A stretch of 64,000 bases of DNA from a virus. Positions 335 through 63,807 of the stretch are shown piece by piece. The stretch covers positions 43,380-107,379 of IMG/VR virus record IMGVR_UViG_3300045988_092736. The stretch is one strand, 5' to 3'. Each line of letters begins with the position of its first letter. Positions within the stretch are counted from its first letter, which is position 1. The notes below the pieces were generated by a model that saw only the letters and a list, made by a program, of their open reading frames with translations, was not told where the DNA came from and did no database searches. The translations under genes and the position numbers were made by a program.

Positions 335-1117
335 ATGAAGGAATTAAGAAAGAAAACATTTAAAAATGGTGTCGTGTATTGCCTTCAATTAGAAGATGGC
401 TTTCTAGTTGAAACTACAGACACGTTCTTACCTTATTACACCAAAGATGCAATAGGCAGACATCAAAACAAGCTTGATAACAATGAGCTTGGCGACCGTA
501 CAGAACGTTGGATGATTGGAGTATCTACAATGAGTGGGTGTCCAGTAAGATGCAAATTTTGCGCTACAGGCAACATGAAACGTTATCGCAATCTTACGGC
601 AGAAGAAATTGTAGAGCAGGTTGAATTTGCCGTCAATAAGGCAGGTGCTGACCCAAGCAAAGCAAAAGAGTTTAAAGTTAACTATACTCGTATGGGCGAG
701 CCATTTCTTAATATTGATGCAGTCAAAGAGGCTATTCGTATTATTACGGAGAAATATCCTAATACTCATCATTATGTATCAACGATTGGTATTAAGGGTA
801 GTGATTTCTCTTTCATTAATGGAAATATCACATTGCAGATTAGTTTGCATTCATTTGATGATGACAAGCGAAATTGGTTGATTCCTTATAAGAACAAAAT
901 GACAATTAAGGAGTTGGGACAGATTCGCACAGAAAGCAATCTGAAGACTACAATCAATCTTACACTTGTTGACACTTCTGATTTTGATGCAGAAAAGCTG
1001 AAAAAATGGTTTGATAAGGAGCATTTCTTCGTGAAGTTGTCTCCTATTAATGTGAATAACATATCAGAGAAAAATCACCTCGGCAATGGTGTTGTAGAAG
1101 GAATTAATTTAGTATGA
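335..1117 (+). CDS. radical SAM protein, RlmN/Cfr fold, lacking the N-terminal HhH domain and both class-A methyl-transfer cysteines
   Basis: 'GCPVRCKFCATG' matches the RlmN CxxxCxxC context (GCALECKFCSTA). 'NLTAEEIVEQV', 'MGEPFLN' and 'ISLHS' align with RlmN 'NLRVSEIIGQVW', 'MGMGEPLLN' and 'ISLHA'. No Cys at the C118- or C355-equivalent positions. Confidence 0.7.
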   Translation: MKELRKKTFKNGVVYCLQLEDGFLVETTDTFLPYYTKDAIGRHQNKLDNNELGDRTERWMIGVSTMSGCPVRCKFCATGNMKRYRNLTAEEIVEQVEFAVNKAGADPSKAKEFKVNYTRMGEPFLNIDAVKEAIRIITEKYPNTHHYVSTIGIKGSDFSFINGNITLQISLHSFDDDKRNWLIPYKNKMTIKELGQIRTESNLKTTINLTLVDTSDFDAEKLKKWFDKEHFFVKLSPINVNNISEKNHLGNGVVEGINLV

Positions 1118-1881
1118 AAAAGGGTATTTTCAGATATAGAATTATCACAAATCTGAATTGCAACATGAACGAAAGTACAGGAGTAAACGGAAATTGTTAC
1201 TTCTGCTACCAAAAGTTTAAGTCACCATTGCGACTGGATTGTGATAAGATGGAGGAAACTTTGAAGAAGGTTGGTGTTCTGAAAAGAGCAACTATCATGG
1301 GTGGTGAGAGTTTACTTAACCCAGAATTGGTAAAGATTGTAAAGATAGTCAGCAACTATACGTCAGATGGTATTTGTCTTGTTACAAATGGAATACTGCT
1401 TAATGAGGACATCATCGTAGCATTGAAAGATGCTGGATTAACTGAGGTTGCTATCAGTGTGTCTTCTATCGAGCAGTACGAAAGACGTAGAGACATGGCA
1501 CTTCAGTGTAAAGAGATTATTCCAAACACAAGAATAAACATTCCTAAGTGTAAGGAAAGCTTGAATCCACAATTGTTGGAAACAATACTGGAAGATGGCT
1601 TCTATAGCATTGTTTGTGAAGATTTACAGGCTAGATATGGTGAGATAAGACTCCCAAAAGGTTCTGTAAAGGTTGGCGATGACGGGTATGGATTTTACGA
1701 TTACAAGTGGAATGGTCATACATTTGGAGTATTTGGCAATTATGGGAAGTACAACCGAAGTGATATTATCGTAACTCCTCTTGGAAATTTCTGCGATTGG
1801 GAAAAGTACTGCAAGGCCGTTAAGAACAATGAACTTGTAAGAAGAAACAATCATATTGATGATGACAAAATTGTGCATTGA
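1114..1881 (+). CDS. second radical-SAM-like protein (MoaA/SPASM-like core, non-canonical Cys spacing)
   Basis: 'CNMNESTGVNGNCYFCY' gives Cx12CxxC. 'MGGESLLNPELV' is GGEP-like, 'LVTNG' and 'AISVSS' resemble core radical-SAM motifs. 4-nt overlap with the upstream gene. Confidence 0.5.
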   Translation: MKKGIFRYRIITNLNCNMNESTGVNGNCYFCYQKFKSPLRLDCDKMEETLKKVGVLKRATIMGGESLLNPELVKIVKIVSNYTSDGICLVTNGILLNEDIIVALKDAGLTEVAISVSSIEQYERRRDMALQCKEIIPNTRINIPKCKESLNPQLLETILEDGFYSIVCEDLQARYGEIRLPKGSVKVGDDGYGFYDYKWNGHTFGVFGNYGKYNRSDIIVTPLGNFCDWEKYCKAVKNNELVRRNNHIDDDKIVH

Positions 1882-2302
1882 TTTCGGGAGTGGCTATAAT
1901 CCAAAGACTGGATATAAAACTTGCGATGTAACAACCCTTCCACAATTGGACTTCCTGTATGATGGAAAAGATGAGATTGTCGGACTAAGAGAAAAATCAG
2001 TAGATGTATTCTATCTAAGAAACGTTGTTCATCATATCCCAGACTTACAGAGAACCTTCACAACCTTGAAGAAGTATCTGAAGGTAGGTGGAAAGCTGGT
2101 TATCATTGACTGCAATCAAGGTCATTACAAGACAAATGTATTTCTTGACAATTTGTGGTATAGATTTGTTGGCAACAACCACGAAATCTTTATCAGTAAA
2201 CAGTATAGAGATTACATCAATGTTTTGATCAAGTTAGGCTTTAAGCAATTATATTATAAATCATTTAAAGAAAAGGAGATTACTAAGTATGAATGCAATT
2301 AA
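1856..2302 (+). CDS. class I SAM-dependent methyltransferase
   Basis: Motif I 'IDFGSGYN', post-II 'DVFYLRNVVHHI', motif III 'LKVGGKLVIID'. Confidence 0.6.
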   Translation: MMMTKLCIDFGSGYNPKTGYKTCDVTTLPQLDFLYDGKDEIVGLREKSVDVFYLRNVVHHIPDLQRTFTTLKKYLKVGGKLVIIDCNQGHYKTNVFLDNLWYRFVGNNHEIFISKQYRDYINVLIKLGFKQLYYKSFKEKEITKYECN

Positions 2303-2458
2303 GAATCAATTGGAAAAGATGGGTTACGATTATGCAGTAGCAATCGCAACAAAGGCTGAAATTGAGAATGGAGCTGCTTGTGGTCAGCTCGCTATTATTT
2401 GTGAGTAAGTAATTAATCACCCTCTCCTGTAAAAGGGAGAGGGTAAAAAGAAAAGAAT

Positions 2459-2707
2459 ATGAGATTAAGTGAATATAAAGCAGGTACTATCTTAGTTGCT
2501 AATGATGGTAAAGTGTTTATCCATGATGGCTTTGTTAACGCTGATGGATATGGTGTGATAATTGGTGAGGATTCTGATGGAATGATTCAGAAATCCAATG
2601 GTATTGGCAATTGGATGAAGTGTCACATTAAAGGTGTTGCGACAAAAGAACAGATTAGTGGGTTCTTTGCCAAGGTTCGTAAAACACAGAAAATTATCAA
2701 TTACTAA
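2459..2707 (+). CDS. hypothetical protein
   Basis: ORF preceded by a perfect hairpin plus the 'GAGGGTAAAAA..ATATG' motif, which recurs before 2729. Confidence 0.4.
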   Translation: MRLSEYKAGTILVANDGKVFIHDGFVNADGYGVIIGEDSDGMIQKSNGIGNWMKCHIKGVATKEQISGFFAKVRKTQKIINY

Positions 2708-15039: not shown

Positions 15040-15386
15040 ACGTTAAAAATTTGGTGGTTTGAAATAAATTTCGTACCTTTGCAACGAAATCCCAAGGTGG
15101 GAGGCGGTGGTGAGAACACCACCTCCCTGTTGGAAATCTAAGCTTTACAATTCAATTGTAAGAGCAACTTTGATTTTCCAAATCCGAATTGAAATATACA
15201 GTCTCATGCGGCTTTGGGATTTCATTTTACCTACTCTTTCAGGTTTTCGGCATCTCCTTTGCAATCTCTCATTGATTACACAGCAAAGATACGAAAAATA
15301 TTTGAAATATGCAAATTATTTCAAGATTATTTTTAGAAAACATGAAAATAAATTAGAGTTTCCTTGCATTTCTCGAAGGTTTTTGT

Positions 15387-16718: not shown

Positions 16719-19700
16719 ATGGCACAGCTAGAATTTAACATCAAAGCGAATTTCGACCAAATCAAGCAAGCCAAGCAAGAGCTTGAAAGATTGCGTGGTG
16801 AGTTACAGAAAACAACAAAGGCGACAGATAAGGCGGTGGTTCAGGACCTTACTGACAAATATGCAGAGCAAAAGCAAAAGGTGACAGAGCTTAGTTCCGC
16901 AATGTCTCGCTATGCTTTGGTGATGAGTAGTGATTATGCCAAGAAAATGCAGAATCTTACAAGAGAGGTTTATTCTTTCGAGCTGCAAGCAGACGCATCT
17001 AAGCGAAAGATTGAAAGACTTTCTTCTGAGATTGCAAAGATGCAGTCTAAACTTCGTAAAGGAGGCTTAGATATTGGCACTTCAACAATCCTTAATCGTG
17101 ATATAAGCGAAAATTCCACTATACTCAATGATGAGAAAAGGCGTTATGAGAATCTAACCGGATTAGGTAAGCAGGCAAGAATCGAATTGCAAAACATGCA
17201 AGCAGAGTATGTCCGCTATTCGGGTTCTTCGAGCGCAACTACTGATAACGTAAAGGTGATGACTGATGCCTTTGCCGGAATGATTGAGGAAATGAAGAAA
17301 GTTCCTACTGTCGGTGAGGGTGCAACATCTTTATTTAATCGTCTCGGTGGTGATGCAAAGCAATTAGCAATGAGCCTCGTAGGTGGCCTGGGGTTTGAAC
17401 AATTGGCAGAACACATCTTTAATGTTCGTTCACAATTCCAACAGCTTGAAATTTCATTCACTACAATGCTTGGTAGTGAGCAGAGAGCAGGAGCATTGAT
17501 GAACCAACTTGTTCAAACGGCTGCGAAGACTCCTTTCGACATGAGTTCGATAACAAATGGGGCAAAGCAGTTGTTGGCTTATGGTACGGCTGCAAATGAG
17601 GTTAATGATATTCTTGTTCATCTTGGAGATATTTCGGCAGGTCTGAACGTTCCGTTGAACGATTTGGTGTATTTGTATGGTACAACAATGAGCCAAGGCC
17701 GCATGTACACGATGGACTTGCGTCAGTTTATGGGCAGAGGCATCCCGATGGCTGAGGAGCTTGGTAAAATCATGGGCAAGACAACCCAAGAGGTTCAGCA
17801 AGCGGTTACAGATGGAAAGGTCGGAGCTGATTTGGTGAAAAAAGCTATCATCAACATGACCGAAGAGGGCGGCAAGTTTGGTGGACTGATGGAAAAGCAA
17901 TCCACAACCTTGCAAGGAAAATGGTCTAACATTGGCGATAGCGTTGACCAGATGTTTAACGAACTCGGCAAGAAGTCGCAAGGAATATTTGGCACTGGTT
18001 TAGACTTGATTTCGTCTTTGGTTGACAATTGGGAGACGGTCGTTAAAGTTATTGGTTCGGCTGCGGTAGCCGTAGGCACGTATAAGGCAGGTCTGATGGC
18101 GGCAGCATCCATCCAAAAAGCTCAAAACAAAGCTACACTTGATAGTATTGCAAGTAATCTTGACGAAAAGATAAAAGCGTACAAAGATGAAGCTGAATTG
18201 TATCATTCCTACACCGGAAAAGATACATCCGAATATAAGAGCCAAAGACTTTCGGATTTGAATAAGGCTGTTTCTAATACTGATATGTTGGGTACGGATA
18301 AGGCCGAGGAACTTGTGTCTCTTAAAATCAAAGAGGCTCAGACCGATGGAATCATAACCCAACAAATGGCAGAGCAATTGCAACTTAAACGTGATATGCT
18401 TGTCACTCAGCAACAATCTGCTGCTAAAGAACAGATGGAGGCTTTGGAACTTTCCAAGGGACTTGATGAGAAAATGGCTCAGTTCAAGGAAATGGAAAAT
18501 GATTACCGACATCTTAACGGAAAAGATACCAAAGATTATAAGGCAAGCCGTTATAATGAGTTGGGGAATGCTTTGTCCGATACCGAAAATATCGGTGATG
18601 ATGAAACGGAGAAACGCATATCTAAGCAGATAGAATTAGCGAAATCTGAGGGGTTGATTAGCGAAGAAATGGCTAAACAACTCCAGTTGAAGCGTGACCT
18701 CTTGGTTGAGCAGACAAGACTTGCGGAGAAAGAACAACTCCAATGGCAAAATGCGGTAAACGCCAAAGAAGCCGCAGAAGAAGAGTTGCGTGCAAAAAAA
18801 TCGCAAGAAGACGACATCGCTGCTGCAAATAAGGCTGCGGAACAAGCAAAGGCTGAGGCTGCCCTTAAACAAAAAATAGCCAAGGCAAATGAAACCGCTT
18901 ATGGTAAGGCTCTATTGGAAACTAACGCCTTACAGAAGAAAGTAGACTTGCAGCAAGAGAGTTACGATAAAGCGATGGATGAGGCTCGTGAAAAGAGAAT
19001 AGTCCTTGCTCAACTTGATGAGGAAATAAAAAAGCAGCAGCAAATCATAGAACAGAAAGAAAAGGAATTGGTCTATGATAATGGGGCGGTTGATACGACT
19101 TCATTTGGTGGCTATGCGGATTCTTTTTCGGATAACGAAAATAGTTCAATAGTTCAATACGGGGCAGAACAAGCGAAATTGGAAGAGCTGATGCAAAAGC
19201 GTCAGCAAGCGGATGAGGAATACGAAAGTTCTAACGCAAAGCGTAAGGCTATCCAACAGGAACTTCAGACTACGACTGAGAAGTTGACAGAAGCCGAAGA
19301 GAATGAAACCGAGGTCTATAAAGAGACAGGAGCAGCGGCAGATGAAATTGGGGATATTGTTCAGCAAGGAATAGATATAGAGGATGGTAAGATTAGCATT
19401 ACGGAGGCGGCAACTACTGCTACACAAACCAATACTACTTCTGAAGCTAGCAATGCAACCGCAAAAAGTACTAATGCAAATGCTACTTCTTCGGAAACTA
19501 TTGCTAATACGGCAAACTCGACTTCAAAGACAGCTAATACTGCGGCTACTAATGTAAATACAACGTCCGAGAACGTAAATACAGGAGCAAAGGAACGGAA
19601 TTCCCTTGTTACCTCTATATTATCTGTTGGCACAAAAGGGTTAGCATTAGCTCAAAATGTGTTAACATGGGCTACTAATGCCGTTACCGTTAGTATGAGG

Positions 19701-22700
19701 GAGCTATGGGCTGCAATGCTTGCAAATCCTCTAACTACTATCATTACTCTGGTAACAACCGCAATGTCCGTTTTTGCGATGTTCGGAAGTGACGAGGAAG
19801 ATGTTGCTAAGAAGACTCAAAACATGGGTAATAAGGCTGCTGAGGCTAGTAATAAGGTTCGTTCCTTGTTTGCGGTTTTGGAAAATGGCGAGGCAGAAGA
19901 CCATAAGAACACAATAAATGAATTGAAGTCTGCTTATGAAGAATATGGGGTAAAATTGGATGAGACTAAAATGAAGTCTCAAAGCATGAGTGAGCAAGCT
20001 AATGAGTTAAAGGAGCATGAAGAAGAACTTATCGGTATAATTGAAAAGCGTTCTCTTGAAATGGAGCGTGCAAATCAATTACAAGAGGCTTATGATAATT
20101 ATAATTCTTCAAATGATTCATCTTTCAGCTCATTTAAAGATTCTATAGATGATAAGTTGTCTGATGTAGAAATGGGTACTATTCGAAGTCTCGTAAGTCA
20201 GGATGACATAGACAAGTTAGCTGAACTGCGAAAGGAGATGAATGCTTGTGGTGGAGATTTAAAGGTGTACAACGCATTGAATGCTCAATATTCCCAATTA
20301 CAAGGGGAGTTGAATGTAAAAATAGGAACTTATCTCGAAAATATGCACCATAGCCGTTCTGAGGTGGCTCAGATGATTCCTGATATAAACGACTTTACTG
20401 ATGGGCTTGTTAGCAACAAAGTTGAGTTGGATGGTACGGTTGATTCTATAAATAATAGCGTCAATGCCGCAGAACGTGCGAGAAAAGCCACATCTAAGTT
20501 GACTTATGCGCAAGAGGAACAAGCTTTGAAAAATCAATATGCAAAGAAGAGCTTCAAGGATTTGAATAGTGAAATCCAAGAGACAATAAAGTTGTGCAGT
20601 AGAAAGTTACATCTTGATATTAAGGTTAACTATGATGATAGTGAGCTTCCTGCATGGATTAAGAATATGTCTCAGTCTCAGTTGAAAGCGAGTATGGCTG
20701 TGAGAAAGAACTGGCTTGACGGACACAAAAAAGGGGATGTTCTTCAAGTTGGAGGTCAATATAAGACTTACGAACAGGTCGCAAACGAATTGGCTATGAT
20801 GCAAGCAAGAGGTAACAACATCGAAAGTAAGCCGAAGAAAAGCCAAAAGGAGATAGATAAGGAGAGGAAGGCAAGAGAGAAAGCGGCTAGGGATGCTGAA
20901 AAGGCTAGGAATGATGCCGAGACAAAGGCTGGTAATAAGCGCAAGGCTGAGGAGGACTATGCCAAGTCTATTTCTTCCTATTCGGAGAAAGCTATCCAAG
21001 ACATGACCAAGAACCGCATTAATGCGATGAATGAGGGTTATAGCAAGGAATTGGCTCAGATTACCGAGAATGCCGACAAGGAGAAAAAAGCGGTAGAAGA
21101 TGGTATAGACAAATTGGTTGAGGCTAGGAAAAAGCGTGACCAAGCTGTTTGGGTTAATTCCGGCAAAGGTCGTAAGGCTAATATGTGGAAACAGAGCAAA
21201 ACCGATGAAGAGTACAAGAATGAGGTTTTGAATGAAACCATGAAGGACAGCAAGGGTAATCCGGTTAAGGTAAATGGCATGGAGTTGACCATAGGCATGA
21301 ACGTTGCTAATCAGATGAATGCAATTCGGGATAAGGCTGTAAAGCAGAATGAGGATGTGCTTGCTAAAGAAGCGCAAAGCATGTACGATTATCTGAAGAC
21401 TTATGGTACATTCCAAGAGCAGAAGTTAGCTATTGCTGCCGATTATGCTAAGAGGATTAGCGAGGTTGAAAACTCTACGGATTCGGACTCAAACAAGCAA
21501 TGGAAGATAAAATCTTTGAAAGAAGAGCAGAAGAAAGAGACGGATTCGGTTGAGACTAGTGCTATTATGCAGAAGATAGACTGGTATCAAGTCTTCGGAA
21601 ATGTTGGTGGAATTATGAAAGATGCGCTTGTTCCTTTATTGGCAGATCTGGATAAATTCGTAGGTACGGATAAGTTCCAAAATTTGGGTGCAGACCAGCA
21701 GAAGAGTATAGTTGATGCTATGCAGAATATCCGTAATTCGATTGGTAATACAAGTGATTTGGGTTGGAAAGACCTTGCAAGGGACGTTGTAGCTTATCAG
21801 GAGGCTCTGAAGAATGCGAAAATTGCCCAAGAGGAATATACTGAAACAGAAACCAAGCTTACACCTCGCATTAAGGATTTGCAAAATCAGATAGCGAATG
21901 CGAAAAAGTCGGGCAATGTCGCAGAGCAAGCTAGATTGCAAAATGATTTGAATAAAGTACAAGGTCAGTTAGCGGAGTCCGGAAAGAAGATTGTTACGGC
22001 TAACACAAAAGTCCGTACTAGTGGTCAGAAGTTGGCTCAAACGACACAGAATGTGACGCAACCGATTTCTGCTATCCATGAGTTCCTTTCTACTTCTGGA
22101 CTATCTGATTTAGCATCTCTTTGGGATAGCTTCGATCAGCTTAAAGGTGGAATTGATGGATTGAAAGCTTTGGACGAGGCTAAGAATGCGGCTGATGGTT
22201 TGAAGGATATGGGTAAGGCAGCCGCAGACGCAGCCGCAGCCGCTGGCAAGAAAGCTGGTGATGCGCTAAGTGAAGGATTGTCAAAAGCTGGATTAATAGG
22301 TCAAATCGTATCTGCCATCTTGAAGATACTTGATGTTTTGAAAGATGGTATTGGAACATTGATTAGTAGCTTGATTGATACAGTTCTGAATGCGGTCAAC
22401 GGCATATTAAAGAATATTCTAAGTGGCGATTTTATAACTCAGATTGGAGGGTCTTTGGTAAGCGGCATTGGTAATATTCTCAATACAATATCGTTTGGTG
22501 GATTCAATAGTTTGTTTGGAGTTGGTGGGAACGCAAAAGAAGTAAACCGGACTATAGATAAATTGACGGATAGAAATGAAATCTTGACGGATGCTATAGA
22601 CAAGTTACGAGACTCCATAGACAAGAATAGTGGTATTAAAGCCGTAGAGGACGCTAAAAAAGCCGAAAACCTCCAAAAGGAGAAAGAACAAAATTTAAAG

Positions 22701-23693
22701 AGTATCATGGAGGCGCAAATGGGTTATCATGGCTCTCATCACAGTTTTAACGCTTATTTTCGAGGATTTTCGCAAGAGCAAATCAAAAAGGTGTCCGAAG
22801 CAATAGGCAGACAATGGAATGGTAATCTTAACGACTTGCAATCTGCTGATGAAGCAGCTGCCATTTTGCAGAATCCAGATATGGTTGAGGCTATCAAGAA
22901 TACAGGTAAGGGTGGCTATGGAGGTAGAGTTCTTGAAAAGTTGAAAGACTATGCGGCTGAGGCTGGAACATTAGAGGAAATTGCTGATGACCTTGCAGAA
23001 AGCTTGACGCAAATATCTTTTGATAGTTTGAAGAGCGAGTTCATAGATACTTTGATGGATATGAATTCCTCTGCTCAAGACTTCTCTGATAATTTCTCCA
23101 AGATGCTTATGCAAGCCGTTCTGAAAGCTAAGGTGGATGATTTGTTGGGAAATGATATGCAAGCATTCTATGACGAATGGGCGGAACGAGCTGAGGCAAA
23201 TGGTGGTAAATTGTCAAAGACAGATATAACTGCCTTGAAGGGAAAGTATGATGAAATGGTTCAAGAAGGACTGAAGATTAGAGATGAAGTAGCCGAAATT
23301 ACGGGTTACAAGCAATCTTACGAGCAGTCCGCTTCTTCCGGTTCTTTTGAATCAATGAGTCAAGACACAGGCGATGAGTTGAATGGTCGTTTTACAGCGG
23401 TGCAGATCGCTACGGAGGGAACGTATGAGGAAACAAAACTCATAAATACCAAGTTGGATGCTATTGCGGCTCGTGATGGTGGCGCAGAGGGTAGCTTACT
23501 AACAGCTAGCGTGAATACTATTATGGGTAATGTAGGTAACATTTGGTTAGCTGTTGATGAGGGTAGGACTATCCTTGCACAAAGCTTGATGTACTTGCAG
23601 TCGATTGATGAGAGACAAGAGCGATGGCATAAGCCTATGTTGCAAGCATTCAATGATATACACGAATTGAAAGATAAGATGAGTAGATTGTAA
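16719..23693 (+). CDS. tape-measure-like giant coiled-coil structural protein (2324 aa)
   Basis: Long heptad-rich K/E/Q sequence. Hydrophobic segment 'LTWATNAVTVSMRELWAAMLANPLTTIITLVTTAMSVFAMFG'. T/N/A low-complexity stretch. By far the largest ORF. No catalytic motif seen. Confidence 0.5.
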   Translation: MAQLEFNIKANFDQIKQAKQELERLRGELQKTTKATDKAVVQDLTDKYAEQKQKVTELSSAMSRYALVMSSDYAKKMQNLTREVYSFELQADASKRKIERLSSEIAKMQSKLRKGGLDIGTSTILNRDISENSTILNDEKRRYENLTGLGKQARIELQNMQAEYVRYSGSSSATTDNVKVMTDAFAGMIEEMKKVPTVGEGATSLFNRLGGDAKQLAMSLVGGLGFEQLAEHIFNVRSQFQQLEISFTTMLGSEQRAGALMNQLVQTAAKTPFDMSSITNGAKQLLAYGTAANEVNDILVHLGDISAGLNVPLNDLVYLYGTTMSQGRMYTMDLRQFMGRGIPMAEELGKIMGKTTQEVQQAVTDGKVGADLVKKAIINMTEEGGKFGGLMEKQSTTLQGKWSNIGDSVDQMFNELGKKSQGIFGTGLDLISSLVDNWETVVKVIGSAAVAVGTYKAGLMAAASIQKAQNKATLDSIASNLDEKIKAYKDEAELYHSYTGKDTSEYKSQRLSDLNKAVSNTDMLGTDKAEELVSLKIKEAQTDGIITQQMAEQLQLKRDMLVTQQQSAAKEQMEALELSKGLDEKMAQFKEMENDYRHLNGKDTKDYKASRYNELGNALSDTENIGDDETEKRISKQIELAKSEGLISEEMAKQLQLKRDLLVEQTRLAEKEQLQWQNAVNAKEAAEEELRAKKSQEDDIAAANKAAEQAKAEAALKQKIAKANETAYGKALLETNALQKKVDLQQESYDKAMDEAREKRIVLAQLDEEIKKQQQIIEQKEKELVYDNGAVDTTSFGGYADSFSDNENSSIVQYGAEQAKLEELMQKRQQADEEYESSNAKRKAIQQELQTTTEKLTEAEENETEVYKETGAAADEIGDIVQQGIDIEDGKISITEAATTATQTNTTSEASNATAKSTNANATSSETIANTANSTSKTANTAATNVNTTSENVNTGAKERNSLVTSILSVGTKGLALAQNVLTWATNAVTVSMRELWAAMLANPLTTIITLVTTAMSVFAMFGSDEEDVAKKTQNMGNKAAEASNKVRSLFAVLENGEAEDHKNTINELKSAYEEYGVKLDETKMKSQSMSEQANELKEHEEELIGIIEKRSLEMERANQLQEAYDNYNSSNDSSFSSFKDSIDDKLSDVEMGTIRSLVSQDDIDKLAELRKEMNACGGDLKVYNALNAQYSQLQGELNVKIGTYLENMHHSRSEVAQMIPDINDFTDGLVSNKVELDGTVDSINNSVNAAERARKATSKLTYAQEEQALKNQYAKKSFKDLNSEIQETIKLCSRKLHLDIKVNYDDSELPAWIKNMSQSQLKASMAVRKNWLDGHKKGDVLQVGGQYKTYEQVANELAMMQARGNNIESKPKKSQKEIDKERKAREKAARDAEKARNDAETKAGNKRKAEEDYAKSISSYSEKAIQDMTKNRINAMNEGYSKELAQITENADKEKKAVEDGIDKLVEARKKRDQAVWVNSGKGRKANMWKQSKTDEEYKNEVLNETMKDSKGNPVKVNGMELTIGMNVANQMNAIRDKAVKQNEDVLAKEAQSMYDYLKTYGTFQEQKLAIAADYAKRISEVENSTDSDSNKQWKIKSLKEEQKKETDSVETSAIMQKIDWYQVFGNVGGIMKDALVPLLADLDKFVGTDKFQNLGADQQKSIVDAMQNIRNSIGNTSDLGWKDLARDVVAYQEALKNAKIAQEEYTETETKLTPRIKDLQNQIANAKKSGNVAEQARLQNDLNKVQGQLAESGKKIVTANTKVRTSGQKLAQTTQNVTQPISAIHEFLSTSGLSDLASLWDSFDQLKGGIDGLKALDEAKNAADGLKDMGKAAADAAAAAGKKAGDALSEGLSKAGLIGQIVSAILKILDVLKDGIGTLISSLIDTVLNAVNGILKNILSGDFITQIGGSLVSGIGNILNTISFGGFNSLFGVGGNAKEVNRTIDKLTDRNEILTDAIDKLRDSIDKNSGIKAVEDAKKAENLQKEKEQNLKSIMEAQMGYHGSHHSFNAYFRGFSQEQIKKVSEAIGRQWNGNLNDLQSADEAAAILQNPDMVEAIKNTGKGGYGGRVLEKLKDYAAEAGTLEEIADDLAESLTQISFDSLKSEFIDTLMDMNSSAQDFSDNFSKMLMQAVLKAKVDDLLGNDMQAFYDEWAERAEANGGKLSKTDITALKGKYDEMVQEGLKIRDEVAEITGYKQSYEQSASSGSFESMSQDTGDELNGRFTAVQIATEGTYEETKLINTKLDAIAARDGGAEGSLLTASVNTIMGNVGNIWLAVDEGRTILAQSLMYLQSIDERQERWHKPMLQAFNDIHELKDKMSRL

Positions 23694-25692: not shown

Positions 25693-25880
25693 TAGATTTA
25701 GGCACACGCTAAACTGCACCGGACTTTGGACATTAAATATTTAAGAGATATGGATAAGAATTATGGTGAAAGTTTTTGTTTTTCACAATATAGATAAGTG
25801 TTGTTAAACTGAGTGCTAATTTTTGGTAGAGTGGAATATAATAGCTATCTTTGTGGTCGAATTTCAAAACTTATAAGGAC

Positions 25881-26777
25881 ATGAAGATATTAGAACCAAA
25901 ATATGAAATCCTATCCCAAGGTGAGGGTATGGATGGAGTTTACAAGCAGATAGAGTTATGCGGTCGCACTTGCTATGCGTCAAGTATGAAGATAGACAAA
26001 GACAGTGCAAAGCCTTTCGTTGAGCGTATGGTAAGCAGCAACCATCTTGCCATGTGTGAGCATGGAACGATTTACCTCCATGTAGCCTATGAAGAAGGAT
26101 TTTTTGTGCCGGAGTCTTTATTGGTCAAGCACTATCGTGAGAACAAATATTCAAAGGTGATGCAGATAGGTAACGATTACTATATCACAACCAACTACAG
26201 AGTGATAGTTGAAAATAATTGGTTTGAGGATTTGGACTATATCTGCGAGCCTACGGAATGGCATGAGAAGCGAATAACCGTCCGCTTTACTACTCAGATT
26301 GCGGTAAGTAGAGAGGCTAACAGACATCGTGTAGATTCCGTAGCGGAACAAAGCACTAGATATTGCAACTATAGTAAGGATAAGTTCGGAGGCGAGATTG
26401 CTATCAACAAACCAAAGTGGGTTGGTGAAGATGATGCGGTTAATCCATCGTCTTTTGATGGTGGAACATTTGTTGACCTATCAAAGAACATCGGTAGTTA
26501 TGAGCATTGGAGTCCGGTAGAAAAATGGTGGTTTGCCAATAGAGTATGTGAAATGATGTATTTGTCTTTGGTTAAGGATGATGGTTTAAAGCCACAAGAT
26601 GCGAGAACTGTTCTTCCTCTTGATACCAACACGGAGTTGATTCATACCGCATTCGTGAGTGATTGGCTTCATTTCTTCGATTTGCGATCAAAAGGAACTA
26701 CTGGAAAGCCTCATCCAGATATTGAGGTCTTGGCAACCCCATTGATGAATGAGTTCAAGGAACGAGGTTTGATTTAA
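25881..26777 (+). CDS. thyX: flavin-dependent thymidylate synthase ThyX
   Basis: ThyX signature 'RHRVDSVAEQSTRY' (RHRxxxxxxxSxRY). ATG at 25881 preferred over 25851. Confidence 0.8.
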   Translation: MKILEPKYEILSQGEGMDGVYKQIELCGRTCYASSMKIDKDSAKPFVERMVSSNHLAMCEHGTIYLHVAYEEGFFVPESLLVKHYRENKYSKVMQIGNDYYITTNYRVIVENNWFEDLDYICEPTEWHEKRITVRFTTQIAVSREANRHRVDSVAEQSTRYCNYSKDKFGGEIAINKPKWVGEDDAVNPSSFDGGTFVDLSKNIGSYEHWSPVEKWWFANRVCEMMYLSLVKDDGLKPQDARTVLPLDTNTELIHTAFVSDWLHFFDLRSKGTTGKPHPDIEVLATPLMNEFKERGLI

Positions 26778-33024: not shown

Positions 33025-33097
33025 GCTGCATTAGACAAGTGGTTAAGTCGCCAGCTTTTCACGCTGGTATTCAAAGGTTCGAATCCTTTATGCAGTA
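33025..33097 (+). tRNA. tRNA-Glu: tRNA-Glu (anticodon TTC)
   Basis: Cloverleaf: acceptor GCTGCAT/ATGCAGT, anticodon stem CCAGC/GCTGG, loop TTTTCAC, T-arm AAAGG-TTCGAAT-CCTTT. Confidence 0.7.
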
Positions 33098-33103
33098 CTA
33101 AAT

Positions 33104-33174
33104 TGCCCTATGGTGTAATGGCAACACTACAGGTTTTGGTTCTGTCATTAGTGGTTCGAATCCACTTGGGGCAA
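33104..33174 (+). tRNA. tRNA-Gln: tRNA-Gln (anticodon TTG)
   Basis: Acceptor TGCCCTA/TGGGGCA (one G-U), D-stem GTGT/ACAC, anticodon stem ACAGG/TCTGT, loop TTTTGGT, T-arm AGTGG-TTCGAAT-CCACT. Confidence 0.7.
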
Positions 33175-33204
33175 CGAGGAGGAATAGGAGTATGTTCCAC
33201 AAAT

Positions 33205-33289
33205 GGTGCGATATTCAAGCGGTTAAAGAAGATTGACTGTAAATCAATTCCCATAGCGGGTTCGGTGAGTTCGAATCTCCCTTGCACCA
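33205..33289 (+). tRNA. tRNA-Tyr: tRNA-Tyr (anticodon GTA) with long variable arm
   Basis: Acceptor GGTGCGA/TTGCACC, anticodon stem ATTGA/TCAAT, loop CTGTAAA, about 15-nt variable arm, T-loop TTCGAAT. Confidence 0.65.
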
Positions 33290-33311
33290 CAAGTACTTTT
33301 GTCATATTACA

Positions 33312-33385
33312 AGGAATGTAGCTCAGTAGTAGAGCACTTGGCTATGCAACCAAGGGGGCGTTGGTGCAAATCCAACCATTCCTTT
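33312..33385 (+). tRNA. tRNA-Cys: tRNA-Cys-like (GCA) with an apparent 8-nt anticodon loop
   Basis: Acceptor AGGAATG/CATTCCT, U8A9, D-stem GCTC/GAGC, anticodon stem CTTGG/CCAAG enclosing CTATGCAA, T-arm GTTGG-TGCAAAT-CCAAC, discriminator U as in tRNA-Cys. Confidence 0.5.
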
Positions 33386-33387
33386 AC

Positions 33388-33459
33388 GCTTTCGTAGCTC
33401 AGTGGCAGAGCATAGGATTTTTAATCCTAGGGTCGAAGGTTCGAATCCTTCCGTTGGCA
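33388..33459 (+). tRNA. tRNA-Lys: tRNA-Lys (anticodon TTT), two U-U mismatches in the acceptor stem
   Basis: D-arm GCTC-AGTGGCA-GAGC, anticodon stem TAGGA/TCCTA, loop TTTTTAA, T-arm GAAGG-TTCGAAT-CCTTC, acceptor GCTTTCG/CGTTGGC. Confidence 0.55.
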
Positions 33460-33641
33460 CAATGATACACAAGAAGAGAGCCGTGATGTTTGTCCTATTG
33501 GAATCTCGGACATCTGTCAACGGGTAAACGTAGGAAGCAGATGGGACGAATAAAGTTGCGAATAAGTCTATGAACTAGGGAGACAAGCGGAATGGTTCTC
33601 TTTTGTGTTTCGTTTGATGGTTTTACGAAAATTAGAAGAAT

Positions 33642-34203: not shown

Positions 34204-35139
34204 TTGATTATGTCTAAGCAGACTGGTTTTTCATTCGCAAGTTCAAAGAAGTCATTAATTGAGACTATTGACGAAATCAAGAAGTCAAAGATGTCTCGCA
34301 ACGAAAAGATTGTTGCATTGAAGGCTTGCGGTCTTCGTGAGAAAGAAATCTCCGATATGTTGAAGGTTTGTGTGCCAAGCGGTTCAACTTCAACGAGATT
34401 CGTTTATACATTCGGTGTTGAGATTGAATGTGTTCATGCCGAGCGCAATGCCTTGATAGAGGCAGGTCGTCAGAATGGTGTTGATATTCATTCTGAGGGT
34501 TATAACCACACCGATAACAAGAGCTATTTCAAGATTGTTAGTGATGCTTCAGTTGGTGGTGATGTTGACCCTAACGAGGTTGTAAGTCCGGTATTGAATG
34601 GCAATACAAATGGTATGGCAACTTTGAAGAAGGCTATCAAGTCTTTGGATGCTGTAGGTGCAAGAGTTAATTCTACTTGTGGTCTTCACGTTCATATCGG
34701 TGCAGCTAAGTTGACAGGTGAGCAGTATGTTAACGTTTTCAAGAATTATCAGAAGCTTGAAAGATTGATTGATAGTTTCATGGCTCCTTCAAGAAGAGGT
34801 AATTGCCGTTGGGCAGCCAGCTTGCTTGACAAGGATTTCTCTAATTGCCACGGCAATTACGATATTAGACGTAATGTATTTCATGGAGATAGATATTACA
34901 AGGTAAATGCTGAGAGCTATACACGTCACAAGACTATCGAGTTTCGCCAGCATCAAGGTTCAACCAATTATAAGAAGATTGAAATGTGGGTTAAGTTCTG
35001 CGCAAAGCTTGTCGGTTGGTCTCGAAACAATGTCTTCACTAGTGAGGTTATGAATATCGAAGATATACCTTTCTTGAATAAAGAAGAGAAGGCTTTCTTC
35101 CAGAGCCGTAAGGATGCATTTGCAGCCAATAATGATTAA
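34204..35139 (+). CDS. amidoligase-family enzyme (Amidoligase_2-like)
   Basis: 'FGVEIECVH', 'EVVSPVLNG' and 'TCGLHVHIGA' match the gamma-glutamyl-cysteine-synthetase-like amidoligase motifs of Iyer et al. 2009. Confidence 0.6.
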   Translation: MIMSKQTGFSFASSKKSLIETIDEIKKSKMSRNEKIVALKACGLREKEISDMLKVCVPSGSTSTRFVYTFGVEIECVHAERNALIEAGRQNGVDIHSEGYNHTDNKSYFKIVSDASVGGDVDPNEVVSPVLNGNTNGMATLKKAIKSLDAVGARVNSTCGLHVHIGAAKLTGEQYVNVFKNYQKLERLIDSFMAPSRRGNCRWAASLLDKDFSNCHGNYDIRRNVFHGDRYYKVNAESYTRHKTIEFRQHQGSTNYKKIEMWVKFCAKLVGWSRNNVFTSEVMNIEDIPFLNKEEKAFFQSRKDAFAANND

Positions 35140-37346: not shown

Positions 37347-38435
37347 ATGGAAAAATCACTTTATTTTCAGTTGGTCAATAAATACTTCCCACAACTTGTT
37401 GCAAGTGTAGTAGAGAAGTTGAACGGCAAGAATCAGACTGCATTGACCTATATGTACCGAGACCACTTGACTAACACATATAGTCAGGACGGACGCTGGG
37501 CATCAATTACTGCGGAATACACACGAGTTGCTGCTGATGTTGTATCAATGGATGCAGAACTTCCATTGAAGAGCCGTGATAAGGTTTCAACCGCTGAGGG
37601 TCAAATCCCAAAGGTTGGTATGAAGCTTTACATGTCAGAGAAGCAGCTTAAGGATTTGGATAACATGATTGCGCAACGTTTGCCTCAGCCACAGATTTTG
37701 CGTAACTTGTTTGCAGACCTTCCTCGTTGTATTCAGGCGGTTTACGAGCGTATTGAAGATATGTTCCTCAGTGAGCTGTCAACAGGTGTAGCTTTGGCAA
37801 CTCGTTCCGGTGGTACTGGTATCCGAATTGATGTAGGTTTTGCCGAGAAGAATAAGTTCGGTCACGGTGCTAAGGCTTGGGACGCAGAGGATGCAACTCC
37901 TCTTGATGACATCCAATTGGTTTACGACAAGGCGATGGAAGACCAAAATACCATCACTACTTGTTATCTTGATGATTACACAATCAAGTTGCTTGGCAAG
38001 AACAAGCAGGTTCGTGCTCAGTTTGCCTTCAATCAAGGCATTGCAACCAATAGTAATAGCAATATTCCTATTTTGAGCTTTGAGCAGATTGCTTCTATCT
38101 TCAGAAATAAGTGGCAGACTAACTTGGTACGTGTAGCCCGTACAATCAAGACCGAGATTAACGGCAAGAAGGGAACACACAACCCTTGGGCTAAGGGTCA
38201 CATGACCTTTACATGCTATGATAACCTTGGTGATTTGTTCTGGACTAACGTAGCCGAAGCTACAAGACCAGTTGCAGGTGTTACTTATCAGTCAGCCGAT
38301 GAGTATATCTTGGCTAGTCGTTATTCTACCAACGACCCACTCCGTGAGTTCACCAGCTCACAAGCAATGGTTGTTCCTATCTTGAATAACGTTGATGCTA
38401 TCTATTCTTTGGACTCAACACAAGCAGTAGGTTAG
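37347..38435 (+). CDS. putative major capsid protein (362 aa)
   Basis: Size and position after the scaffold-like gene. No motif-level proof. Confidence 0.35.
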   Translation: MEKSLYFQLVNKYFPQLVASVVEKLNGKNQTALTYMYRDHLTNTYSQDGRWASITAEYTRVAADVVSMDAELPLKSRDKVSTAEGQIPKVGMKLYMSEKQLKDLDNMIAQRLPQPQILRNLFADLPRCIQAVYERIEDMFLSELSTGVALATRSGGTGIRIDVGFAEKNKFGHGAKAWDAEDATPLDDIQLVYDKAMEDQNTITTCYLDDYTIKLLGKNKQVRAQFAFNQGIATNSNSNIPILSFEQIASIFRNKWQTNLVRVARTIKTEINGKKGTHNPWAKGHMTFTCYDNLGDLFWTNVAEATRPVAGVTYQSADEYILASRYSTNDPLREFTSSQAMVVPILNNVDAIYSLDSTQAVG

Positions 38436-42321: not shown

Positions 42322-43428
42322 ATGTATAAAAACGAGCACAAGTTCCCTTATAGATGGACTAAAAAAGATGCTAATTTTACAAAAGACAAAGGTAAGGTGA
42401 TGTCTTGCTTTTGTTGTGGAGGTGGAAGTTCCTTTGGTTACAAACTAGCTGGATACGATGTTGTAGCCTGTAATGAGATAGACCCAAAGGTTATGAAGAT
42501 GTACTTGAAAAATCACGATGTCAAGTACGCTTTCAATTGTGATATTCGTGAGTTGATTACCAATATCAATATGGGGGGGCATATTATGAAAGAAGAGTTG
42601 CATAATTTGGATATATTGGATGCTAGTTTCCCATGTTCTGTATTCAGTATTGCAGGTGACCGCCAAAAGGCTTGGGGAAAGGAAAAAGTATTCCGAGAAG
42701 GTCAGAAGGCGCAAAGGCTTGACGATTTGGCTTTCTACTCTATTGACCTTGCTAAAGAACTAAAGCCAAAGGTGGTGGTTTTTGAGAATGTCCAAGGTTT
42801 GTTGCAAGGTGAAGCTATCGAGTACGTGAAAGAGATTTACAAGCAGATGGATAATGCCGGATATATCTTGCAGCATTGGTTGCTTAATGCACGTAATATG
42901 GGTGTTCCTCAGAATCGACCTAGGGTGTTCTTTCTAGGATTACGCAAAGACCTTTGCGAGCCGTTTATGGTTCAGAAGGATTTGTTCGAGCGAGTGCCTA
43001 AGATAGATATGGACTTCAACGAGAAAGAAATTGTCTTGGATGAGTTCTCGGACTATAATGGAAGACAGATTCCTAAAGGAATGATGAAGTATTGGGAGTA
43101 TAGAAACGAAAAGGACAATTCTATCGGTGATATTGTCAAGCGGATGGATAATCGTCTTTCTATGTTCAATAATATGTTTCTTAAAAAGAACAAGGTATGC
43201 AATACCATATCAGCAATGGAAGATAGACTTGTGTATTATGATAATCCAAGTTATCTTTCAGCACATGATACGATTTTAGCATCAACATTTCCGATGGATT
43301 ATGACTTTAATGGCATGAAACCTTGGTTTGCTTGCGGAATGTGTGTTCCTCCTGTTATGATGGCTAATGTAGCTACAAGAATCTGGGATTGTTGGTTATC
43401 AAAGATTAAAAAGGAGGAATGCGCATGA
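42322..43428 (+). CDS. DNA (cytosine-5)-methyltransferase
   Basis: Motif I 'FCCGGGSSFG', motif IV 'FPCSVFSIAG' (PC), motif VI 'VVVFENVQGLL' (ENV). Confidence 0.8.
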   Translation: MYKNEHKFPYRWTKKDANFTKDKGKVMSCFCCGGGSSFGYKLAGYDVVACNEIDPKVMKMYLKNHDVKYAFNCDIRELITNINMGGHIMKEELHNLDILDASFPCSVFSIAGDRQKAWGKEKVFREGQKAQRLDDLAFYSIDLAKELKPKVVVFENVQGLLQGEAIEYVKEIYKQMDNAGYILQHWLLNARNMGVPQNRPRVFFLGLRKDLCEPFMVQKDLFERVPKIDMDFNEKEIVLDEFSDYNGRQIPKGMMKYWEYRNEKDNSIGDIVKRMDNRLSMFNNMFLKKNKVCNTISAMEDRLVYYDNPSYLSAHDTILASTFPMDYDFNGMKPWFACGMCVPPVMMANVATRIWDCWLSKIKKEECA

Positions 43429-61844: not shown

Positions 61845-62387
61845 TCATTTTATTTCGATAAGAGTTAAAATGCAATAACCTAACAAGTCTTTATAGCTGT
61901 CTATGACAGGCTCTTCTTTAGCATCCTCGTTCAAAGTCAGCAAAGAGCAAATACGATTAATCTTCTCTTGCAAATGACCGAATGCATACGGATAACCATC
62001 CTTAGAGAAACATTCCGAGAAAGCGTTTCCATACCGCTTATTCTTGGTTTTGAAAAGCTCGATTTGCGACCCGATGATGTCGTTATAATCAGAAACAATA
62101 TACCAAGAGAGCGTAAGCAAGGCTTCCATCGCCATTACGCTGATATGATTTCGTAAGGTTTCTTTGTCTTCAGAAGATGCTCGAATCTCATACATAAGAC
62201 GAAGGAAATTGGCTGCGCTTGAAAATAATCCGAGCTTTCCGAAGTCCTCCCTTAGAGATGAAACGAAAGTGGCATTATCCTTGCATTCAATCATGTCTGC
62301 CAAATGTCTAATCTCAAAGATATACTTGTTAGCATATTCGCAACACCCATTGTTATTTTGCTCCACCATGTCCGTATCCTCCTCCAC
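61845..62387 (-). CDS. hypothetical all-alpha protein (possibly DUF1599/MazG-like, unverified)
   Basis: 'KNKRYGNAFSECF...GHLQEKINRICSLL'. Adjacent to the dUTPase. Confidence 0.3.
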   Translation of the reverse strand: MEEDTDMVEQNNNGCCEYANKYIFEIRHLADMIECKDNATFVSSLREDFGKLGLFSSAANFLRLMYEIRASSEDKETLRNHISVMAMEALLTLSWYIVSDYNDIIGSQIELFKTKNKRYGNAFSECFSKDGYPYAFGHLQEKINRICSLLTLNEDAKEEPVIDSYKDLLGYCILTLIEIK

Positions 62388-62940
62388 GATTATTTTCCAT
62401 ATTCAACTCTCCAAGTATGCAATCTGGATTTTCTACCTTGCGGAATGCCCCCTGACAAATACGAGTACCTTTCTTGACTACGAAAACATAATATTCGTAA
62501 TCTGAATCTAGTTTAAATTTGCTATCCTTTGTCGGCATATAACGGTCGGAATTAACTCTATAAAGCGCACCAATATTGTCCCTATAGTCTTCATCGACCA
62601 GACCTAGACAAATATCAATATCCGCTCTAACATTAGTCATGTAACCAACTTGTGTTTCGTTCTTGCCAATAAAGGCCACATCAACTTGCATACCTTTGTC
62701 AGTAAAGCCGGAACGTGAACGAATATCCAAGCCAACATCTTTAGGAAGTTCAACACCTAAATGCAGATTTATGTGACCTCTTCCCATTTTCACCCAAGGC
62801 ATATTCAATACCACATCTTGTGGACAGTAAAAATCAACTGCCGCAGCATTACCTTCCTTATAAGGAACACGACCACCTCGCAAGTCAAGTACATAAGCCT
62901 TGCCTTGTGCTACTAACTTCTTTATTAACTCCTTATCCAT
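62353..62940 (-). CDS. dut: dUTP diphosphatase (dUTPase)
   Basis: Motif 2 'RSGFTDKG', motif 3 'GLVDEDYRDNIGALY', motif 5 'RGGGYGHGG'. Confidence 0.65.
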   Translation of the reverse strand: MDKELIKKLVAQGKAYVLDLRGGRVPYKEGNAAAVDFYCPQDVVLNMPWVKMGRGHINLHLGVELPKDVGLDIRSRSGFTDKGMQVDVAFIGKNETQVGYMTNVRADIDICLGLVDEDYRDNIGALYRVNSDRYMPTKDSKFKLDSDYEYYVFVVKKGTRICQGAFRKVENPDCILGELNMENNRGGGYGHGGAK

Positions 62941-63080
62941 TGTATATAAAGCCTAAATCATTTAAAGTTCTACAATTCTTAACCAGTCCTTTTGCCCATA
63001 AATTACGCAACTCAGGTAACGGGTCTTTTCCGTACCTATTCTTTATGGTTGCTAAGGTCAAGATTTCCGGTTTAATATGT

Positions 63081-63563
63081 TTATCTCTTTTCTGCTGTCT
63101 TAGCTCCTTCAGAATATTCTCCAAGTTCTCCATTGACGAAATCCTCCATTGTTATATTGTCAACCCCAAATTTATCAGCCAGATCATCGTTCCCAATAAT
63201 CAGCCAATTAGATTTGTCTTTGAGAAACTCTATACTCTCGGTGCTTTTTGCAGCATCAACAAAAGTATCATCAATATTATCAGTAGAGCAATATGGAACT
63301 ACCGCATTAACTGTATACATAGCAATTTCGTATGAAATAACCGATACCATTTTCTTGAATGTTATATCGCTTGAATACATTACTTGGTTCTTGTCATATC
63401 CTAAGATGTTGACACGGACTATATTATTATCTGCTTGCAACGCTCTAAAGAAATCGTGCTTTAGCTGAAAATCCGTAATATCTATAGGATGCTCGTTACC
63501 CGATGGAATACTTATAATATCCAACAGGCTTACAAAAATAACTTTTTTATTCATTGTCTTCAT
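63081..63563 (-). CDS. hypothetical protein
   Basis: Intact minus-strand ORF. Confidence 0.4.
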   Translation of the reverse strand: MKTMNKKVIFVSLLDIISIPSGNEHPIDITDFQLKHDFFRALQADNNIVRVNILGYDKNQVMYSSDITFKKMVSVISYEIAMYTVNAVVPYCSTDNIDDTFVDAAKSTESIEFLKDKSNWLIIGNDDLADKFGVDNITMEDFVNGELGEYSEGAKTAEKR

Positions 63564-63807
63564 CTGTTAATAATTTATCTATTGTTTTTTCTAATTCGTC
63601 TAATCTTAGAGTATAATCCTCTTCGTAAACGCATGTCAATGTAGAAATAAAGAACTTATCATTATCTGTTCTCAATTCAATCTCCATGTATTCCTCGTAA
63701 TAGCTATCATATTTAATTGCTATCGAAAAGGAGTTCATGTAATCTGGGTTGAACCTCCTCTGCAAAGCTTGCGCTCTCGTAAACGCATCATTGAATTCGT
63801 TTGTCAT
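63547..63807 (-). CDS. hypothetical protein
   Basis: Intact minus-strand ORF. Confidence 0.35.
   Translation of the reverse strand: MTNEFNDAFTRAQALQRRFNPDYMNSFSIAIKYDSYYEEYMEIELRTDNDKFFISTLTCVYEEDYTLRLDELEKTIDKLLTDEDNE

Follow-up and report, generated by a model that had tools for sequence, protein, structure and literature searches.

Close to the start of a 64,000-nucleotide stretch of viral DNA (IMG/VR virus record IMGVR_UViG_3300045988_092736, positions 43,380 to 107,379; hereafter the window) lies a compact module of four genes, here termed g1 to g4, followed directly by a hairpin (Table 1). An earlier sequence-only reading of the window had described g1, g2 and g3 as an overlapping operon in which g1, a radical S-adenosylmethionine (SAM) enzyme of the RlmN/Cfr fold, lacks both cysteines used for methyl transfer. 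The operon was read correctly: the three plus-strand open reading frames (ORFs) overlap, g1 and g2 within the tetranucleotide ATGA, and the order g1-g2-g3 is the same in every locus with a full-length g2 (43–98% identity), including 18 loci from bacterial genomes or metagenome-assembled genomes (MAGs). A further gene, g4, whose first 14 nt are also the last of g3, lies mostly outside the positions that reading covered (335 to 2,302). It encodes an apparent homologue of the RlmN loop bearing one of the two cysteines. The earlier observation is thus largely right, yet incomplete in a way that changes its meaning, since the 'missing' methyl-transfer cysteine is present in trans.

Table 1. Features of the module, of the rest of the window and of neighbouring genes in related loci (window positions unless a locus is named).
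Feature	Position	Strand	Description
g1	335–1117	+	260 aa; RlmN/Cfr-fold radical SAM core
g2	1114–1881	+	255 aa; radical SAM enzyme, MoaA/viperin/AbmM-like
g3	1859–2302 (start 1856/1859)	+	147–148 aa; small class I SAM-dependent methyltransferase
g4	2289–2408	+	39-aa micro-protein MNAIKNQLEKMGYDYAVAIATKAEIENGAACGQLAIICE; homologue of RlmN 326–365
Hairpin	2419–2444	+	Perfect 10-bp, G+C-rich, directly 3' of g4
DUF805b RNA	15228–15260	−	Rfam cis-regulatory motif
Tape-measure gene	16719–23693		2324-aa protein
ThyA-like gene	25851–26777		
Five tRNA genes	33025–33460		Glu-TTC, Gln-TTG, Tyr-GTA, Lys-TTT and the next entry
Fifth tRNA gene	33311–33385		Four-base anticodon 'atgc' (ARAGORN)
Amidoligase gene	34204–35139		
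Major head protein gene	37347–38435		
DNA methyltransferase gene	42322–43428		
Band_7/SPFH genes of related loci	L001 9197–9997; L003 3455–4672; L064 8550–9389; L128, L133, L136, L138–L140		Prohibitin-like; next to g1-g4 or in the other settings named in the text

In the reaction of RlmN and Cfr, one enzyme cysteine (RlmN C355, Cfr C338) is methylated by SAM, the 5'-deoxyadenosyl radical takes a hydrogen from this methyl group, the methylene radical reacts with adenine C2 or C8 to give a protein–RNA crosslink, and another cysteine (RlmN C118, Cfr C105) resolves the crosslink through a disulfide (PMC4689488; 2025 Cfr structure preprint). Profile searches placed g1 closest to RlmN, in agreement with the fold proposed for it earlier. 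RlmN (TIGR00048) is its top NCBIfam family (7.9e-23; 81 bits against a cutoff of 290), followed at a distance by Cfr (4e-15; 53–56 bits against 530–550); the closest sequences of solved structure are RlmN 6fz6 (4.5e-15) and E. coli RlmN (5e-11); and a profile of 55 g1 members compared by hhalign with an RlmN/mini-RlmN profile (E 6e-53) aligned g1 1–241 with E. coli RlmN 79–313. The Pfam Radical_SAM match is 2e-11, and the only PHROG match is phrog_24834, a family of unknown function. RlmN and Cfr act on A2503 of 23S rRNA and A37 of tRNA, with C2/C8 methylation, and to our knowledge class A of the radical SAM methylases is defined by the activities of these two enzymes only. g1 has the core of that class, namely the RlmN/Cfr-type radical SAM partial barrel, the CxxxCxxC motif and the SAM-binding motifs (GCPVRCKFCATG, residues 68–79, with cluster cysteines C69/C73/C76; MGEPFLN, 120–126; ISLHS, 169–173), but it does not have the C355/C338 loop in the same chain, C118/C105, the RlmN_N domain or a score at the level of the curated families. 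No Pfam match to RlmN_N was found in g1 and the alignments begin at about RlmN residue 79, which bears out the earlier statement that the N-terminal HhH RNA-binding domain is absent. The C118 position, seven residues before the first cluster cysteine, is occupied by G62, which is invariant in 55 family members at 36–93% identity. There is no cysteine after C76: the chain stops after the sixth strand, its C-terminus lying about 20 residues past this last barrel strand, and the C355 loop is absent. Compared with RlmN/Cfr, g1 also carries a 20-residue insertion in its N-terminal beta extension.

The g1 family comprises 2,220 clusters at 90% identity and is a target of selfish elements. A 438-aa variant on 32 contigs has an HNH endonuclease fused in frame upstream (P0004, L001 10001–11317), and in P0340 an intein with a LAGLIDADG endonuclease is inserted directly after the cluster motif. 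In a higher-GC relative, a third radical-SAM-like ORF (331 aa, CPNKCPWC; L049 2099–3094) stands immediately upstream of g1.

The segment with which RlmN continues was found downstream. A tblastn search with the 179-aa g3 homologue of locus L057, where g3 and g4 form a single polypeptide (as they do in L058), gave a second match after g3, at window positions 2289–2405, and this match is g4. The gene is preceded by an AAGGAG ribosome-binding site, and the C-terminal half of its product contains the heptapeptide AACGQLA, identical to that around C355 of E. coli RlmN. When a profile of 13 g4 peptides was compared with the RlmN/mini-RlmN profile (hhalign, probability 90.9%, E 1.2e-6), g4 1–39 aligned with RlmN 326–365, a helix, a strand and the C355 loop, with C31 on C355. 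The two proteins thus tile RlmN consecutively, g1 over 79–313 and g4 over 326–365, so that g4 supplies exactly the elements that come next after the end of g1. The gene finds no family in Pfam or PHROG and is skipped or left hypothetical in some annotations; the IMG pipeline labelled one copy 'adenine C2-methylase RlmN'. The statement that neither cysteine position is filled accordingly holds for the g1 chain and not for the locus, where the C355 segment is encoded by g4.

Several lines of evidence bear on whether so short an ORF is a gene. Nine residues (A18, A20, T21, E24, A29, A30, C31, G32 and Q33) are invariant in 13 diverse g4 peptides. Across 38 alleles of the same length mean pS was 0.55 against a pN of 0.11, and some alleles differ by ten synonymous and no non-synonymous changes. 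We found 43 distinct peptides in 152 occurrences, with a length of 39–41 aa that is constant in most lineages (a few phages have longer ORFs), and at least 1,000 contigs carry g4 with exactly the sequence of the window. Judged by these substitution patterns, g4 is a real gene under strong purifying selection. Such selection, together with its own ribosome-binding site, near-constant length and variable frame relative to g1, rules out a decaying remnant of a full-length gene; the varying frame also excludes expression as a g1–g4 readthrough fusion. C38 of g4 was considered as a stand-in for C118 and rejected, as it is not conserved. In Vibrio phage D479 (L062 5800–6081) the g4 unit VKEAGFDAGLAIATDAEVxAGAACGQMAIL occurs twice in tandem within one 93-aa ORF.

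The two genes keep close company. Among viral loci retrieved with g1, 77 of 79 contain g4; conversely, 75 of the 78 loci that g4 retrieved also have g1, a contig end truncating two of the three that do not, and in IMG/VR the relatives number 259 for g1 and 258 for g4. The pair occurs in Kehishuvirus 'tikkala' (Bacteroides), Moorella phage MTATph1, Vibrio phage D479, Pectobacterium phages Arno18/Wc4, Yersinia phage P778, a 369-kb jumbo-phage contig and many Firmicutes MAG contigs. It takes two forms: in 38 of the 79 viral loci g4 begins about 24 nt after g1, and in 39 the four genes run g1-g2-g3-g4, with the g2-g3 cassette lying between g1 and g4 at the point where these otherwise adjoin. Sister phages whose g1 proteins are 92–93% identical differ only by this cassette, which is absent from about half of the viral loci and from all cultured phages carrying g1; no full-length g2 was found in cultured phages. 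At one decayed locus (L083) a g2 fragment, g3 and g4 persist and g1 has been lost. From the near-constant linkage of g4, as opposed to a cassette absent half the time, it follows that g1 and g4 are the conserved core and that g2 and g3 are an accessory pair dependent on it. The three-enzyme pathway proposed by the sequence-only reading is replaced by this arrangement. In sister phage lineages and in Kehishuvirus a Band_7/SPFH (prohibitin-like) gene is found next to g1-g4 (Table 1); such genes recur elsewhere, one of them close to the Stenotrophomonas phage ANB28 mini-RlmN and one on a 73.5-kb phage contig.

The phage mini-RlmNs provide a natural comparison. Those of Stenotrophomonas ANB28, Aeromonas Ahp1, Salmonella Arash and Vibrio 166E36-1 (~310 aa) resemble g1 in being phage-borne and N-terminally truncated, are 31–35% identical to it, and reside in accessory regions with tRNA genes or NAMPT (nicotinamide phosphoribosyltransferase). 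Unlike g1, they carry both C118 and the C355 loop (GGGCGQLW) in one chain, and scanning these four revealed no separate g4. They are probably ordinary m2A/m8A-type methylases. Further single-chain mini-RlmNs of about 300–335 aa (P0396, P0409, P0412, P0413, P0418, P0432 and others) have an (S/T)NCGQ loop and I, T, V or N at the C118 position; loss of the resolving cysteine is therefore not unique to the split family. A looser relative from Bacteroides phage Versailles (L169 2872–3879) has T at the C118 position and TCGN near its C-terminus.

Of the accessory pair, g2 is a radical SAM protein, as stated earlier (Pfam 6e-13; GGE at 63–65, TNG at 91–93), although its cluster motif is C16-x11-C28-x2-C31 and not Cx12CxxC. 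The same three cysteines form a canonical CNQNCYFC in divergent relatives; the lineage of the window has an eight-residue, lineage-specific loop inserted in CxxxCxxC. Family matches are limited to residues 9–124 and fall well short of a full-length match at curated score (MoaA, 47 bits against cutoffs of 231–325; viperin, 40 against 180). What separates g2 from the nucleotide- and nucleoside-modifying enzymes MoaA, viperin, AbmM and BlsE, besides scores far below their cutoffs, is a C-terminal beta-rich half of its own with invariant C168 (within VVCEDLxGRYG) and C233; C88 is near-invariant. The assignment of g3 as a class I SAM methyltransferase is upheld (Methyltransf_11, 1e-6, 29.6 bits against 21.2; Methyltransf_23, 28.6 bits against 27; phrog_5399, 4e-27): it has the Rossmann-type domain and the glycine-rich motif I (IDFGSGYN, residues 8–15), and its likeness to generic small-molecule methyltransferases is weak. 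Stand-alone g3 relatives occur in Bacillus phages. P0365, in which a g1-like protein is fused to a second radical SAM domain, was rejected as proof of g1–g2 coupling, that domain resembling g2 weakly (E 0.003).

Because g1 and g4 tile RlmN, co-occur, and are replaced in the both-cysteine mini-RlmNs by a single chain that goes without g4, the reading we favour, with a probability of roughly 0.55, is that they make up a two-piece class A (RlmN/Cfr-type) radical SAM enzyme that lacks a resolving cysteine and has its carrier cysteine on a detachable piece. Beyond g4 being a C355-loop homologue always found with g1, the scheme below is what we infer. From its conserved motifs, g1 would bind the [4Fe-4S] cluster and SAM. 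Homology and strict co-occurrence suggest that g4 then provides the missing helix–strand unit and places C31 in the active site. By analogy with RlmN, C31 would be S-methylated by SAM; the 5'-deoxyadenosyl radical would abstract a hydrogen from the methyl group, and the S-CH2 radical would attack an sp2 carbon of the substrate, most likely C2 or C8 of adenine in RNA or in an adenine nucleotide. Because the resolving cysteine is an invariant glycine, G62 in the window, the thioether adduct presumably could not be released by an internal disulfide. It might be resolved by an external thiol or partner, or the peptide might be consumed stoichiometrically and left attached; in either case, a carrier that can leave would free the core enzyme for another turnover. 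In the four-gene form g2, a nucleotide-type radical SAM enzyme, and g3 would be a tailoring pair whose target is probably g4 or the adduct, with g3 perhaps methylating the thiol of g4. That the peptide is acted upon or stoichiometrically used is hinted at by the strength of the g4 ribosome-binding site, by the tandem copy in phage D479 and by the fusion of g3 to g4, all of which would fit such a role. The sequence-only reading had considered an RlmN ping-pong mechanism unlikely for want of both cysteines; that exclusion lapses, as the carrier-cysteine loop comes in trans from g4 and only C118 is truly missing.

Several points weigh against the two-piece enzyme. A complex of g1 with g4 is a prediction from homology and co-occurrence, and the homology of g4 to RlmN was seen by profile–profile comparison, in a shared motif and in the genomic logic; a g4-only profile searched against PDB sequences returned no RlmN at E ≤ 10. 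(A positive search of the same kind was discarded as circular, its alignment having contained RlmN.) The RlmN reaction as known cannot complete without the resolving cysteine, and the real chemistry may differ. In addition, g1 has no RNA-binding N-terminal domain and is mildly basic (pI 8.5), and the steps assigned to g2 and g3 are put forward as a proposal. A more specific version of the scheme makes g4 a consumable carrier: for want of a resolving cysteine, every catalytic cycle would leave the 39-aa peptide joined through a methylene thioether to adenine, which might belong to RNA of the host or the phage or to a nucleotide (NAD+/ADP-ribose, for instance, or an immune signal derived from ADP-ribose). 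This would be a new enzymatic peptide–nucleobase conjugation; in the four-gene form the adduct would be processed further by g2 and g3, perhaps through cleavage of the C-S bond and then S-methylation, and phages would thereby remodel translation, or neutralise or alter NAD-based immunity. Taken as a whole, this chain of events is unlikely.

As to the substrate, adenine in RNA is the default and an adenine nucleotide of NAD metabolism a serious alternative. Gene contexts are mixed, and those away from NAD salvage include tRNA genes (with the ANB28 mini-RlmN), Pnkp/RNA-ligase genes and plain housekeeping genes. The alternative takes NAD+, ADP-ribose or a derived immune signal, and not RNA, as the target, which in phages would make the module part of a counter-defence against NAD-depleting or ADP-ribose-signalling immunity; it draws on a series of neighbourhoods. 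In two diverged bacterial lineages (L059/L074; L075) the four-gene module lies inside a complete NAD-salvage operon, PncA-NAPRT-NUDIX-[module]-NadE-NADK-NMNAT-CinA-NrtR; on phage contig L055/L056 it directly follows NUDIX and NAMPT; in L057 a NADAR gene is near it; and on a 73.5-kb phage contig an NMNAT-NUDIX gene is about 3 kb from g1-like radical SAM genes and 5.4 kb from g2. Relatives show the same tendency: the both-cysteine mini-RlmN of Vibrio phage 166E36-1 is directly downstream of NAMPT (L172 1128–3825), other mini-RlmNs are fused to NUDIX (P0403) or to an isochorismatase, PncA-like, domain (P0462), and in Bacillus phage Nate a g3-like methyltransferase is 2 kb from a PnuC-like gene. 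The absence of an RNA-binding domain from g1 and the likeness of g2 to nucleotide-modifying enzymes point the same way. We nevertheless regard such a target, in place of RNA, as doubtful: no NAD gene was found within 8 kb of the module in the lineage of the window or detected in the 64-kb window, most bacterial contexts consist of unrelated housekeeping genes, and since NAD genes, tRNAs and other auxiliary genes are commonly intermingled in the accessory regions of phages, adjacency may be incidental. Among the papers on NARP2, NAD reconstitution and counter-defence that our searches listed, we found no mention of radical SAM, and PADLOC has no match for g1. With generic N-terminal pVip similarity for g2 and a weak mad2 match for g3 (E 5e-4) as its other results, an anti-phage defence system was rejected.

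The remaining explanations differ from the two-piece methylase in the chemistry or in the role of g4. Since the canonical methyl-transfer cycle is impossible once C118 is lost, the g4 cysteine could instead donate a hydrogen atom or carry a thiyl radical, like its counterparts in spore photoproduct lyase and the radical SAM epimerases, and the pair would then catalyse a radical reaction without methylation (a repair, an isomerisation or a reduction, for example); that several other mini-RlmN families keep the CGQ cysteine without C118 likewise suggests a chemistry independent of it. This is quite unlikely, given that the AACGQ loop and the SAM-binding residues of the class A methylases are retained almost unchanged in the g1/g4 system and that the methyltransferase–g4 fusion fits methyl chemistry on the peptide. 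Alternatively g4 might be the substrate itself, a 39-aa peptide derived from the RlmN tail and modified, for example by thioether formation or C-methylation, by two radical SAM enzymes and a methyltransferase in the manner of a ribosomally synthesised and post-translationally modified peptide (RiPP). Radical SAM RiPP clusters, of the sactipeptide, ranthipeptide and RaS-RiPP types, do pair a short peptide gene with such enzymes. Against this, g4 shows extreme conservation all the way from phages of Proteobacteria to Firmicutes, nine residues being invariant and pN far below pS, whereas RiPP cores diversify; its conserved residues are exactly those of the RlmN catalytic loop, which sets it apart from the peptides of such clusters; it shows no conserved leader with a variable core, and in the contexts examined it has no protease, transporter or immunity gene as a regular neighbour; and the minimal system consists of g1 and g4 only. 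A RiPP-like role is accordingly rather improbable. Very improbable is the proposal of the sequence-only reading, that g1 is truly cysteine-less, works by a non-RlmN mechanism and with g2 and g3 hypermodifies phage DNA or nucleobases. It can point to the absence of both cysteines from the g1 chain, to the conservation of g1, g2 and g3 together and to ThyA-like, amidoligase and DNA methyltransferase candidates elsewhere in the phage. Yet the C355 loop is supplied by g4, half of the loci have g1 and g4 without g2-g3, and no DNA-precursor enzymes are linked to the module. The module is also found on gut Firmicutes chromosomes, mostly among unrelated housekeeping genes (HolA, ClpC, TrpRS and FtsZ-like, identified by eye), and this setting argues against a function specific to phage DNA.

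A detachable cysteine carrier of the kind we favour has a partial precedent. GrcA (YfiD), the stand-alone glycyl-radical 'spare part' of pyruvate formate-lyase, is a small protein bearing a catalytic radical-bearing loop that would normally form the C-terminal part of a larger enzyme; it steps in for a domain that has been damaged in an enzyme otherwise intact, whereas the large partner here, g1, never has the loop, and its fold and chemistry are unrelated to those of g1/g4. The pair departs from RlmN/Cfr in that a polypeptide of its own, 39 aa long, carries the cysteine loop, the resolving cysteine is an invariant glycine, and the N-terminal RNA-binding domain is gone. In our literature searches we came across neither the family nor a split RlmN, nor any report on radical SAM enzymes in phage NAD pathways, and it is a genuine possibility that the chemistry is unlike any on record. 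Radical methylation by way of an S-methylcysteine on the enzyme is known in its textbook form from RlmN and Cfr, the latter also being a resistance enzyme of clinical importance. On the two-piece reading nature would repeatedly have dismantled this machine, setting the carrier loop free, discarding the resolving cysteine and losing the RNA-binding domain, in a pair abundant in phages of the human and animal gut, in Vibrio, Pectobacterium, Yersinia and Moorella phages and in gut Firmicutes. It would offer enzymologists a natural trans system in which to dissect the two half-reactions, and possible new products in the form of a peptide–adenine adduct or further-tailored adenines; the recurrent proximity of the module and its relatives to NAD salvage is a testable lead to phage counter-defence.

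Turning to the boundaries of the module, the hairpin after g4 (ΔG −19 kcal/mol, z −5.1, no U-tract behind it) is probably the 3' boundary of its transcript. The region around it (window 2410–2461) is 94% identical over 52 nt to MT835597.1, an otherwise unrelated human-faecal phage contig, and could be a terminator that the two have in common or else a boundary element that is mobile. At the other end, the expectation that the cluster continues beyond the 5' edge of the window was not borne out: the 3 kb upstream of the module in nearly identical contigs hold only small unrelated ORFs and no extension of the cluster, and the window itself opens with small ORFs ahead of g1. In every other lineage examined g1 is the first gene of the module, save at the jumbo-phage locus L087, where g4 stands just upstream of g1. 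Rfam searches for known RNA elements ahead of the module, riboswitches included, in the window and in eight bacterial loci found only tRNAs. Several Firmicutes loci (L071, L072, L076 and L084) share a promoter- or operator-like motif, TTGAC..(N)..ATGTTATTAATATAATGTTA, about 60–100 nt before the module, to which a regulator may bind.

The rest of the window is that of a large long-tailed gut phage. The length of its tape-measure protein implies a tail that is very long, and genes for a major head protein, an amidoligase, a DNA methyltransferase and a ThyA-like protein are present as well (Table 1). The last three are better candidates for DNA modification than the g1–g4 module. The host is very probably Segatella copri, because the exact g1, g2 and g3 proteins have been deposited from S. 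copri assemblies (RHH85319, RHH85318 and RHH85317) and a module 98% identical is present on a 135-kb contig of S. copri HF1825. A crAss-like identity was rejected, as the Kehishuvirus match concerns g1 only and the other genes, including that for the tape-measure protein, are of siphophage type. So was stop-codon reassignment as the cause of the scarcity of long ORFs, since readthrough of TAG, TGA or TAA gave no meaningful ORF lengthening.

Among the five tRNA genes of the window, the one to which ARAGORN gave a four-base anticodon was assigned no amino acid and is still recognised as a tRNA by Rfam (59.6 bits). The DUF805b RNA on the minus strand scored 39.6 bits against a gathering score of 35.6. 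GC skew is positive throughout the window until a sign change at about 62 kb (window 62001–64000), which suggests a coding-strand switch or a replication-related boundary.

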